NCBI GenBank assembly: GCA_038087875.1 | Contig: CM075994.1 | Span: forward strand, 6,386,001 to 6,450,000 | Length of the DNA stretch: 64,000 nt | Direction of reading: 5' to 3' | Source of the DNA: Malacoraja senta | Lineage: Eukaryota | Shown: positions 1,782 to 5,643 of the stretch, piece after piece | Layout of the letters: every line of letters starts with the position of its first letter | How positions within the stretch are numbered: the first letter of the stretch is position 1 | Made by a program: the position numbers and the translations under genes | The notes under the pieces: generated by a model | What the model was told of the DNA's origin: nothing | Seen by the model: the letters and a program-made list of their open reading frames with translations, nothing else | Database searches by the model: none

Positions 1782-2174
1782 TGATATAAAAATTCATTCC
1801 TATAGTTATCGGGGACTGTACCTTTAAGAATCATGTATGGGCAAGTCTATTTTGGGATGACATTATGTGCTGACTATGGTTTTGTACTTTGTACTCTGTG
1901 TGACGAGATTAAGTTAGGGTCGCTGTGTGACGAGATTAAGTTAGGGTCGGTGTGTGATGAGATTAAGTTGTGTCCGATACCTGCGTGATGAGATTAAGTT
2001 GTGGTCGATACATCCTTGTTTACTCCATTGTATAAAAGAATGAGTTCTGGCGCTGCTTCGGCAGAGAGACTCGTTCAGACGCCTGAACTCTGTGCGATCC
2101 TCTCTCATGTATTAAACAGTCAGTTGGATCTAAATTTCTGTGACTGTCGTTTGTTGGGAGAAATATTTCTAACA
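1782..2174 (+). mobile_element. ERV 5' LTR (TG...CA, about 393 bp)
   Basis: Starts with TG at 1782 exactly where L1 homology stops. Contains four 27-31 bp U3 repeats (1897-2012), TATAAAA at 2031 and ATTAAA at 2111. Ends with CA at 2174, 4 nt before the PBS. Confidence 0.88.
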
Positions 2175-2178
2175 TAAT

Positions 2179-2196
2179 TGGCGCCCAACGTGGGGC
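2179..2196 (+). promoter_or_regulatory. Primer-binding site for tRNA-Lys(1,2)
   Basis: TGGCGCCCAACGTGGGGC, the canonical 18-nt Lys1,2 PBS. Confidence 0.95.
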
Positions 2197-2792
2197 CCCA
2201 ACATCTCTGTTGCCTTCTTCCAATAAACCAAGAGCGCTCACTTTAAGGATTTACGGAAGGTGGAAACAGAGTGACGGGGTCCAACCGACACGACCGAGAT
2301 AAAACTGAATGTTCCGTAGGAAGGGGCCCCCGGGTTAAGTAATTTTGACTTTGATGAGTTGTATTTTGTTACCTTCCTCGGAGACCAGAGACGACGTACA
2401 GAATTGTCGGGGACAATTGAAGAGAGTAGTTGGACTACTCCGGCGACTGGGTCGCCAAAGAAGTCTGGGACTTCAGAGTCAAGTTGGACTTGACAGGGAA
2501 AAAGTATTGTCGTAAGTCTCGAGGAGGGAATCAGAATGGGCTCGACAAACTGAAAAGGTAAACTGTTTGATTTTGACGAACCACTTTGTACTCTCGCGAA
2601 ACTGTACAGGAAAGGAAAAAAGAAAACGAAGTAAGGGTAAGAGACAATTATTGCGAATAATTGTCCCTGAGTAGTGCGACTACTCGTGTGGCGCGGCCAC
2701 GGAAGTCTGGGACTTCATAAACCCTTGTCAAGTCTGACTTGAAGAAGGGAAAAGGAAATTGTAAGTACTGACAGTGTAAACGAGAGGGGAGT

Positions 2793-4087
2793 ATGGGTTC
2801 GACAAACTCAAAAAAGTTACGAAGGCGATGAAAAATGCATGTTTATAGATAGCAAAAAAAATTGTAAATGGAGGTGGAAAAGGGACTATGGGTTTAGTGG
2901 TAAATTATTGGTAGACGATTGTTCTAAACTAATGTCCGCAATATTGAATGTTGCTGTTAAGAAACGTATAAACAAAGATAAATTAGGCTACCAACAGGCA
3001 CGAATTTGGCTCGGCGTAGCCAAAGCACGGAAGAACGGGCAGGAGGAGAAAAAGAAGAAAAAAAAGAAGAACAGACGACGGCGTACCTACAGAAAGGAGA
3101 CAACGAGGTCTTCTATCGATCGCCGCCTAAAAATACGTTGGCGCCTTTGCCGGCGAACCCCGGAACGGCGAGTGCACCCCCTCCCTATTTTCAGGAAGGT
3201 GGAGTGGCCTTGCCAACAGGAGAAAGGAGCGAAGCTGGGACCGCGACGGCCCGAGTTCACGGACCCATACCAGGTTTACAAAATCCGAGTGTCACCAGGT
3301 CAGGAACTCAATTTAAACCATTGGGGCCATTTATGGAACAAATAACAGAGGGAATGGGGGCCCTAATGAGCCCGCCTTGCCCGACCTTTAACCGAGTGGG
3401 CGAAGGGGAGGGAAGTATCCTGCCAATGATAGCCATGCCTAACCCAGGAGGAGCAGCCCAGCCGGTATATATATATCGGAAGTGGACACTCAAGGATGTT
3501 AAGAAGGCAGAAGAAGGGATCACACATCCCAAAGAGAATTTCACAAGGTGGCAACGGGATTTTGGAAACCTGGTCGTGCGTTATCGGTTAAACAGTATTG
3601 AATATGAACAAGCCTTGCGAAGTATGTTCGGTTTTGATTGGTGTTTGATAGAAGGGGATTGGAACCCCCATAACGCGGCAGGATTGCATTTCGAATGGGA
3701 ACCTAATGATAATGTTTACCAACAACGGAGAATAGCTATGGAAGGGCGTATAAGGGAGCATTACCAAAAAATGGTTGACTACAATAAAATAAGAGCATGT
3801 GTGCAGACAAAGGACGAGGACGTGCGCCACTATTTCGCCAGATTGAGACAAATATTCGAGGCAAATAGCGGGATAATGGCGCCCGTCCAGTGGGTGGATG
3901 ACGGACCATTCGCCCAACAACTAAAAATAGAATTATTAAACGGCATGCAGCCAGAAATCAGCTCGAACATTAAGTAGCACATGGTGGGTTACAGAACCGG
4001 AGGGTTAAGGCAATTTAAGGACTGGGCAGTACATGCGGAAGAAAAAGCTAAAAGCAGAAAAACCACAACCAAACACGTTTATCTGGC
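2793..4087 (+). pseudogene. gag: Retroviral gag (class I, gamma/epsilon-like), disrupted and truncated before NC
   Basis: ATG 2793 gives MGSTNSK (myristoylation motif), which joins the 2839 frame if one A is removed from the run at 2810-2815. MA-like WKRDYGFSGKL follows, then a second shift in the A-rich tract at about 3030-3070. Also present: late domain SAPPPY, CA start PVYIYRKWT, MHR-like QTKDEDVRHYFARL, and a premature TAG at 3975 followed in frame by MVGYRTGGLRQFKDWAVHAE. Confidence 0.9.
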
Positions 4088-4090
4088 TGA

Positions 4091-4246
4091 AGTAATAGAG
4101 GGGAAGACGGACTATGGAGGAATGATGAGGGAAAACTAATCTTACCAATATCACTATTTAAATATGCATGTTTAATGAGCCATGGGGTAACCCATGTCTC
4201 AACAGGAGGATTGATACAAATAGTGGACAAAATATTCAAAACATAC
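4091..4246 (+). pseudogene. pol: pol remnant: RNase H-integrase linker and first half of the integrase HHCC zinc finger
   Basis: Frame 2 reads GEDGLWRNDEGKLILPISLFKYACLMSHGVTHVSTGGLIQIVDKIFKTY. PR, RT, RNase H and the IN core are absent. Confidence 0.82.
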
Positions 4247-4983
4247 AGCTACAAGTAGAGCATGAAAAGCTAATAAAGTGTGGATCAGGAGAAAAGTCGT
4301 AAATTACATGAATTAACCATTATGCAGGATCGGCGAGAGCAAGCTAGGCAGGACCTCAAAGGACTTGAAGAGACTGTGGCAAAAGAGCTCCAGACACTCC
4401 ATAATCTTAGGAAGTTGTTTGTTCAAGACTTGGCCACGAGAGTCAAAAAGGGTGCTGAAATGGATTCTAGCGATATTGGTGGGAGCGCGGCACAGAAGCA
4501 AAAGATCTCCTTTCTTGAAAACAACCTTGAACAACTCACCAAGGTTCACAAGCAGTTGGTACGAGACAATGCAGACCTTCGGTGTGAGCTTCCAAAACTG
4601 GAGAAACGTCTCCGAGCTACAGCTGAAAGGGTCAAGGCTTTGGAGTCAACATTGAAGGAAGCGAAGGAGAATGCAGCTCGAGATCGTAAACGCTATCAGC
4701 AGGAAGTGGATCGCAGCAAAGAAGCTGTGCGAGCAAAGAACATGGCAAGGAGAGTGCACTCCGCACAGATTGCTAAGCCCATTCGTCCTGGTCAACCCCC
4801 AATCCAAGTGCAATTCGTGGGGGCGGTGGATTCTTCCAGAACAGCCAAGCGGTCGCTGTACGTGGAGGTGGTGGAGGTGTAAAATCAGATAAGTTTGTCC
4901 CCGGAGGGGTGCCAAATAATGCTGAAATTGGAGATATTGGGTTCTTGCCTACATCTGTTAAAGCTGCTAAAGCAAGAACATAA
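4246..4983 (+). pseudogene. KIF5B: Intronless (retrocopied) kinesin-1 heavy chain C-terminal tail, KIF5B type
   Basis: Translates as QLQVEHEKL(K)[58 protein letters not shown]...[56 protein letters not shown]...[23 protein letters not shown] and DLATRVKK distinguish KIF5B from KIF5A/C. There is a +1 insertion near 4274 and a small frameshifting deletion near 4800. Frame 1 then resumes [24 protein letters not shown] to TAA at 4981. Confidence 0.96.
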
Positions 4984-5643
4984 TCAAAGCGCAACAGATA
5001 TCATCCAACAACCCCATCATTCCAAGGCAGTGTGAACTCTACAACTTAGACTTTTCACAGGAATATTTTTGGAAGAATAAAACAAAATCAAAACAGGCCT
5101 TTACAGCTACATCCTTGCAAAATAAAAGTGCAATGTCGGCATCTTGCAAATACTACATGTGATTTCGTATAGCTTCATTGCACACTACATTGTCATTCAT
5201 GTCTTAAATTTAGACTGCACAGGTGTGATATTGAAGCCTAATTTGTGTATATTTCATTGTTTTAGGATTTGTGAAACAATGTCACCAAGTAGATTTGATG
5301 AGCTTGTTTTACAATGGGGGTAAAATGATTTGGAGGAACCCAGCTATAACCCTTGTGCAAATTAAGATAGTACTTGAAGTTTTCTTGAAATGGGATTTTT
5401 ATGTTGGTTTAAGATGAAGAGTAGTACAATTTGAATACTGAAGGTGCATTTATGACTGTGGTTAGAGCAGAGAGCTAGGGTAGTTCAGAAAAAAGCTGCT
5501 AATAAAATACTGGAATGCTTAACTAAGGGTCAGTTTTTCACTATTGGGCTTACCATATGATGAAACAACATTAGAAAGAGCATTTGAGTTAAGAAATTGC
5601 ACTTGTTCTGGTTGTACAATTGGTTTTAGTTGAAGTGCAAATA
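4984..5643 (+). other. Probable KIF5B 3' UTR carried with the retrocopy
   Basis: AT-rich non-coding sequence directly after the native stop, with several AATAAA (e.g. 5501). No LTR, PPT or poly(A) before L1 homology resumes. UTR identity is inferred. Confidence 0.65.

Follow-up and report, generated by a model that had tools for sequence, protein, structure and literature searches.

A fragment of kinesin KIF5B messenger RNA within an endogenous retrovirus family of skates

How does the tail of a motor protein come to lie inside a retrovirus? The question is raised by a 64,000-nt stretch of the Malacoraja senta genome (GenBank assembly GCA_038087875.1, contig CM075994.1, positions 6,386,001–6,450,000), the whole of which is called the window here and numbered from its first letter. 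Positions 1782–5644 hold a truncated endogenous retrovirus (ERV) that reads, entirely on the plus strand, from a long terminal repeat (LTR) through a primer-binding site (PBS), a gag-like frame and an integrase stub into codons and 3′ untranslated region (UTR) of kinesin KIF5B. This layout, including about 245 KIF5B codons and about 660 bp of UTR in viral sense, had been given in a preliminary description made from the letters alone and is borne out; the start at 1782 stands, whilst the end moves from 5643 to 5644, with a 5-bp duplication beyond it. The element belongs to a non-autonomous ERV family in which KIF5B messenger RNA (mRNA), likely captured once in a rajid skate, replaces most of integrase and env, and which was likely spread by a helper, the kinesin piece being probably an inert passenger. 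The features of the window copy are as follows.

1777–1781, plus strand: left 5-bp target-site duplication (TSD), matching 5645–5649; uninterrupted L1 paralogs are continuous across the site, and the TSD of the family is 5 bp
1782–2174, plus strand: 5′ LTR, 393 bp, TG...CA, with a 27-nt tandem repeat in U3; 95–98% identical to paired LTRs elsewhere
2179–2196, plus strand: PBS, 18 nt; the same 18-mer follows the 5′ LTR in four of five two-LTR copies and in the relative L069
2197–2900, plus strand: leader, 3′ limit approximate; common to family copies and, to 2558, also to L069
2900–4102, plus strand: gag, with approximate 5′ limit, truncated immediately after capsid; from open frames and comparison with related proviruses
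4097–4102, plus strand: 6-nt overlap at the deletion of nucleocapsid, protease, reverse transcriptase (RT) and RNase H; from contigs of runs X9 and X1 and from L069
4097–4250, plus strand: RNase H–integrase linker and integrase N-terminal stub; 96.8% identical to the L069 pol frame
4245–4250, plus strand: 5′ capture junction, a 6-nt integrase/KIF5B mRNA microhomology with one letter changed in the window copy
4245–4983, plus strand: intronless KIF5B coding piece, residues 738–987, with the isoform X2 ending
4984–5644, plus strand: first 661 nt of the KIF5B 3′ UTR; from a host mRNA contig in run X15
5645–5649, plus strand: right 5-bp TSD

The chimera and its junctions

The KIF5B piece is 97% identical in amino acids to skate KIF5B and matches human KIF5B residues 757–928 at E 1e-94. 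In the window copy it comprises 246 codons from 4245, with a +1 frameshift near 4273, the motif QIAKPIRPG at 4766–4792 and a stop at 4981–4983; the reading frame 4322–4882, containing the IAK motif, is open, as previously noted. A 16-nt deletion near 4801, common within the family, shifts the frame directly after that motif. Host KIF5B contigs from the DNA sequencing runs X1 and X9 diverge into introns at 4317/4318, about 4379 and 4451, where the window is continuous. Since these three host introns are absent from the window, the piece derives from spliced KIF5B mRNA, an origin that the preliminary description had proposed from human exon junctions and that the skate introns now confirm. A run contig of the spliced host mRNA is colinear with the captured piece, which amounts to about 2.2 kb from codon 738 into the 3′ UTR, 1.4 kb of it being UTR.

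Junction microhomology, which the preliminary description had raised, is present at both ends. Virus and host mRNA share six of six nucleotides at the 5′ junction (virus side from L069, X3, X4 and X9; host side from X1, X9 and X15) and six of seven at the 3′ junction, and a 6-nt overlap at a single junction would arise by chance with a probability of about 0.002. Host mRNA extends past the 3′ junction (X15, X13), so that the capture ended within the UTR. Neither poly(A) nor a flanking duplication was found at the KIF5B ends, and the piece thus lacks this feature of an L1 processed pseudogene. Residues Q740 and S748 and the C-terminus of the piece agree with Amblyraja and Leucoraja rather than with Rhinoraja, Mobula or sharks, by which the donor was probably a rajid skate.

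The viral part is a remnant. Its PBS is presumably of the tRNA-Lys type, and no transfer RNA (tRNA) gene for comparison was found within the 64-kb window. Searches of Pfam, of PDB sequences and of the protein database gave no match to the gag frame; it is identified by 56–63% identity to a frame that, in related proviruses, is followed first by a CCHC knuckle and then by an in-frame stop and a DSG protease. The gag of the chimera ends just before these three, at the 6-nt overlap with the pol side: in contigs of X9 and X1 the gag side aligns to 4102 and the pol side from 4097. The gag of the window copy has a frameshift near its start and a stop at 3975–3977, and continues out of frame to a stop at 4138–4140. 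An ATG at 4168, in the integrase stub and out of its frame, opens the KIF5B frame in other copies. With nucleocapsid, protease, RT and RNase H gone, and integrase and env largely so, the chimera would need all of these functions in trans.

The scale of the replacement is given by L069 (G000:C6:65715904-65722778), a pol-bearing relative in G000, the genome assembly searched. It has the same LTR as the chimera, a 5-bp TSD and LTRs two mismatches apart, and retains RT, RNase H, an integrase with a C-terminus of murine leukaemia virus (MLV) type and a gamma-type env, without gag or protease; its pol frame holds Pfam rve and MLVIN_C. L069 aligns with the chimera to window position 4250 and resumes from the env C-terminus; about 2.6 kb of L069-type virus is absent between the junctions, with the KIF5B mRNA in its place. 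The solved RTs closest to that of L069 are of MLV or xenotropic MLV-related virus (XMRV) type. Between them, L069 and related proviruses show an MLV-like RT and integrase C-terminus, a gamma-type env and a gag-pol read-through stop, all class I (gamma/epsilon-like) features. As far as sequence goes, the chimera family is a non-autonomous class I ERV, assigned at class level only.

L069 is also a mirror image, as a defective element, of the KIF5B-carrying family. Some 20 related class I proviruses lie on many G000 contigs, with 70–74% DNA identity in pol and an in-frame stop between gag and protease. At L069:1733-2305 and in L117, L118, L111 and L168–L176, about 190 amino acids that include two HxT/S-like motifs are inserted between protease and RT (45–68% mutual identity). 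The insert, like gag, went unmatched in Pfam, in the PDB sequences and in the protein database; it may be a CNPase/2H-like domain of the kind reported for fish ERVs (PMC4977317).

Copies at other sites and in other organisms

A DNA search of G000 with the KIF5B piece, in which all 14 candidates were scored, returned 13 viral places and one intron-bearing paralog. The 13 places are 91–100% identical over the piece and every one is flanked by virus. Two pairs share their flanks, C408/C4017 (L061/L065, 0.8% apart) and C4314/C6042 (L066/L067); these look like segmental duplications or haplotigs of one locus each, and merging them leaves 11 distinct sites. Seven of the 11 have their own 5-bp TSD, differing between sites, and five have two full LTRs with different 5-bp TSDs, the LTRs of a pair differing at 4, 6, 4, 6 and 1 positions in 364–392 nt (0.3–1.5%). 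The window and C3150 copies retain the TSD despite deletions; a TSD could not be shown at C5, C4568, C408/C4017 or C4314/C6042. Segmental duplication was rejected as the source of sites with different TSDs. The 5′ junction motif falls at the same base in nine places, the alignment spans it in two more, and two lack the 5′ half. Amplification as a viral unit, which the preliminary description had envisaged, is thus seen: many loci, differing in their flanks and each with a TSD of its own where one is preserved, share one and the same junction. Mis-assembly, which it had named as a possible undoing, is ruled out by the number of loci, their own TSDs and junction contigs in sequencing runs, and L1 insertion into a single provirus, which it had also named, is refuted as well.

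Full copies measure 5.0–5.5 kb. Where the window copy breaks off inside the UTR, they run on for about 550 nt of UTR and then through an env stub of 400 nt and a polypurine tract into the 3′ LTR; the deletion by which the window copy lost this LTR is private to it. Also gone from its UTR, near 5517, are 183 nt still found in host mRNA and in older copies; the loss lies between 5-nt direct repeats. In the C3150 copy (L068) a large internal deletion leads straight from KIF5B into the final 20 nt of the 3′ LTR, with the 5-bp TSD intact. LTR divergence dates five pairs to about 1–19 million years and the C4017 pair to 17–43 million years, under assumed rates of 0.4–1.0 × 10^-9 per site per year, neither of them measured for skates; the lower is close to the crocodilian rate in PMC4299795. 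Large inserts in older copies resemble long interspersed element (LINE) or LTR repeats, and not additional captured genes, as judged from repeats and frames only.

Shared changes mark sublineages among the copies. The 16-nt deletion is present at six sites and absent from C5, C4568 and C408/C4017; a 95-nt gag deletion is common to C9 and C6, and a 497-nt deletion to C408/C4017 and C4314/C6042. Only C5 keeps I894, all other copies having S894. These deletions and changes, shared at different sites, are those of copies made from copies. Distances over the captured piece are 1.4–2.3% among the six young copies and reach 6.5% (the tree was built without C6042 and C3150, and variants classed without the duplicate C4017). 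Some shared changes among L056–L068 conflict (D812S, the 183-nt UTR segment and the 497-nt deletion), which suggests that co-packaged genomes have recombined. Of three changes that the preliminary description had read as decay, ESTLKE is indeed private to the window copy, whilst RRVHSAQ is normal skate sequence and DRSKEA (I894S) occurs in all copies but one and in the Amblyraja protein.

The chimera is also found beyond G000. Contigs cross the 5′ junction in runs X1 (organism A, 261 nt) and X7 (organism D, 335 nt), and more narrowly in X3 (organism B, 62 nt, one side falling under a 31-nt rule); the 3′ junction is crossed in X7 and in X15 (organism F). Run X9 (organism E) has helper and host-gene contigs and neither junction, and contigs do not prove absence. 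X1 may come from the same sample as the window, in which case it would not count as independent; X7 and the RefSeq protein represent other organisms or records. That protein, Amblyraja radiata XP_032895847.1, named 'kinesin-1 heavy chain-like', has a 26-residue viral leader, I894S and a shifted C-terminus, and its sequence marks it as a chimeric viral frame, not a kinesin paralog. Contigs of X3 cover the integrase stub and the KIF5B piece at a depth far above that in other runs, hinting at a larger expansion in organism B; depth is not copy number.

Origin of the chimera and fate of the kinesin frame

Four of five features tested for LTR-mediated retrocopies were found: an intronless piece, replaced virus, double microhomology without poly(A) and insertions of integrase type; on the fifth, transcription from the LTR as a single unit, there is one chimeric contig in the RNA-like run X15. 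Internal reading frames replaced, microsimilarity with a median of 6 bp and further non-autonomous copying form the signature of template-switch capture, according to PMC5131818. The family would have begun when KIF5B mRNA was co-packaged with viral RNA and, during minus-strand synthesis, RT switched from the end of env onto the 3′ UTR and then back into integrase. A separate deletion with its own 6-nt overlap would have removed nucleocapsid through RNase H, Gag and Pol (and Env, if spread was by reinfection) would have been supplied in trans by a relative like L069, and the 3′ end of the window copy would have been lost later by a deletion sparing the TSD.

The captured frame shows no purifying selection and evolves as if neutral among copies. 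The pooled ratio of non-synonymous to synonymous change (pN/pS) is 1.16 over 184 codons in 10 copies (C4314, C6042 and C3150 being too partial to count), its pN of 0.033 equals p in the 3′ UTR (0.033), and private variants are synonymous in 11 of 67 cases against 22% expected (p 0.31). The capsid gives 0.59, with 30 synonymous variants of 104 (p 0.014). This counts against the function of viral oncogene (v-onc) type that the preliminary description had implied. KIF5B lies out of frame with both gag and integrase, has no evident route to translation, is broken at most sites, and shows neither the gag fusion or expression set-up nor the selection of v-onc carriers; a v-onc-like role of the tail is unsupported on these grounds, and the kinesin piece is probably an inert passenger.

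Several observations weigh against this account. Gag and pol are nowhere found together in a G000 copy with this LTR, and the helper therefore has to be deduced from L069 and from run contigs. The parent KIF5B was not found in G000 by DNA search (coding piece and two UTR parts) or by protein search (tail, whole and motor, with 31 of 31, 48 of 2068 and 91 of 91 candidates scored); the junctions and host divergence consequently rest on contigs from sequencing runs rather than on the same assembly. Most of the counted changes are private and post-date insertion, and shared ones number only six (three synonymous, three non-synonymous; p 0.12 against neutrality), which leaves room for selection during replication. 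The capture point retains nearly the whole tail, and a 237-residue frame from the integrase-stub ATG is open at three of 11 sites (C1, C9 and C408) and in the Amblyraja model. Finally X15, which is RNA-like because it holds a full spliced KIF5B contig, also holds a chimeric contig running from UTR through env into U3, at a depth of 6.8 against 25 for host mRNA, although DNA carry-over is possible. Run X23, sampled at 88 reads from about 6% of the run with none on the 5′ junction, is uninformative at that sampling, and no run with family sequence is recorded as RNA.

As to the missing parent, the only kinesin-1 gene found in G000, on C3652, has 76–84% DNA identity and a KIF5C-like last exon. 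KIF5A was not found in G000 either, and a synteny check recovered one of two expected EPC genes, on C5478, its paralog identity ambiguous. A gap in the assembly accounts for this better than a foreign donor would, because KIF5A and one EPC gene are missing too and because X1 holds intron-bearing KIF5B exons at 4248–4317; this suggests that G000 lacks sizeable gene-bearing regions. Separately, G000:C6:71314528-71315661 carries a single open frame of 473 residues with a whole kinesin motor domain, 44–48% identical to KIF5B; it is intron-poor and of another kinesin family.

The same capture might instead have given the virus a tool. In that event the headless tail, translated as 237 residues with its viral leader from the integrase-stub ATG, perhaps from a spliced RNA, would have aided a skate retrovirus by inhibiting or redirecting host kinesin-1, in the manner of an accessory gene or v-onc, the frame decaying only after insertion, and the family would be the germ-line fossil of a transducing virus, maybe still transcribed in living skates. 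The piece does span the cargo-binding coiled coil and the IAK motif, and a motor-less KIF5A is dominant negative (PMC8328822). The open frames and the X15 contig, with spliced host mRNA beside it, fit such use, as do a 16-nt deletion that reached six sites whilst sparing IAK and the 11 chimeric sites against one pol-bearing site with this LTR. Against it stand the pN/pS and private-variant counts, the out-of-frame position and the 497-nt deletion, which runs through the frame end at two sites, one of which has further lost much of its coiled coil. Over 185 residues the Amblyraja model carries 13 changes, compared with 2–5 differences in shark and chimaera KIF5B, and crocodilian captures taken to be functional do show purifying selection (PMC4299795). 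An expressed tail is accordingly an unlikely reading and an inert passenger the preferred one.

Somewhat less likely still is that KIF5B entered one existing provirus by DNA repair, by gene conversion from cDNA or by L1 retroposition, that locus then serving as master copy. Microhomology is also typical of repair joints, and the data do not settle whether the large deletion or the capture came first; on the other hand, the lack of poly(A) and duplication, the 2.6 kb of virus replaced, both ends lying within the mRNA and the sense orientation are together the signature of template-switch capture in PMC5131818. That the chimera crossed between skate species as an infectious pseudotype, its KIF5B foreign to G000, is very improbable: the unfound gene, young LTR pairs, a derived sublineage common to G000 and Amblyraja and a helper with env would fit, but G000 is probably incomplete, as its missing KIF5A and EPC genes indicate, the intron-bearing exons are in X1, the best holder of the family, and the 6.5% spread of copies suits an old capture with vertical descent.

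Precedents and the insertion site

Acutely transforming retroviruses have defective genomes in which spliced host sequence lies between viral remnants, depend on helpers and arise by template switching. The skate family shares this build, as the preliminary description had seen in calling it the architecture of a transducing retrovirus; it differs in lacking a gag fusion, a shown product or selection, in a cargo that is not a proto-oncogene, and in being a germ-line family rather than a tumour isolate. Epsilon-like ERVs of fish carry extra cell-like domains, including a CNPase-like one (PMC4977317); they too are class I fish retroviruses, and the 190-residue insert of the helper lineage is maybe such a domain, but theirs sit in competent genomes, whereas KIF5B is a recent, genome-disabling capture.

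The LTR-mediated retrocopies of fly and mosquito, of zebrafish and chicken, and of mouse and human, including the HERV-K/FAM8A1 case cited there, resemble the skate family in partial mRNA for internal reading frames, double microsimilarity, no poly(A), both LTRs and non-autonomous copying (Tan et al. 2016, PMC5131818). The KIF5B family differs in occupying 11 sites, in several species, with stepwise sublineages; 'kinesin' and 'KIF5' are absent from the main text of PMC5131818. The nearest vertebrate precedent is crocodilian: KIT-ligand in CrocERV29 (nine copies) and nectin3, replacing env, in CrocERV31 (six copies) are captured host mRNAs that later replicated and occur in more than one species (Chong et al. 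2014, PMC4299795). Those are ERV4 elements with whole open reading frames, purifying selection and pol kept, whereas the KIF5B family is class I, carries a C-terminal fragment with 1.4 kb of UTR, has lost pol, nucleocapsid and env and shows no selection. A literature search, with supplements and subscription papers outside its scope, found no retroviral kinesin capture and no capture by an ERV of a cartilaginous fish or skate. Within that search, the earlier view that no such case had been described stands for kinesin and for cartilaginous fish; for the architecture it does not, given the crocodilian ERVs and LTR-mediated retrocopies (PMC4299795, PMC5131818). The family behaves as an LTR-mediated retrocopy that has become a non-autonomous family, with the build of a v-onc carrier and without its expression or selection.

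As such it is an unusually complete germ-line record of retroviral transduction: the two points of switching, the donor gene, a relative of helper type, insertions with dates and a series of later deletions and recombinations are all legible in it, across several skate species. With it, the capture of host mRNAs by ERVs reaches cartilaginous fish and a motor protein. It provides insertion sites usable as markers of skate phylogeny, accounts for the mis-named RefSeq model and makes it testable whether its cargo helps a defective virus to spread or simply travels along. Were the tail found to be expressed and under selection, it would count as a kinesin inhibitor carried by a virus.

The window copy interrupts an L1 ORF2 and has identical 5-bp flanks (1777–1781 and 5645–5649); other L1 copies are uninterrupted at this position. 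The target and its continuation are as follows.

1378–1776, minus strand: C-terminal part of L1 ORF2, the insertion target (weak zf-RVT match, E 0.003)
5650–7364, minus strand: upstream part of L1 ORF2, continuous with 1378–1776 before the insertion

Further L1 ORF2 copies lie in the window near 15800–15980 and 61170–61330, and two CR1/L2-like RT copies, 93–95% alike and about 3.9 kb apart, occupy 7372–8613 and 11309–12000.

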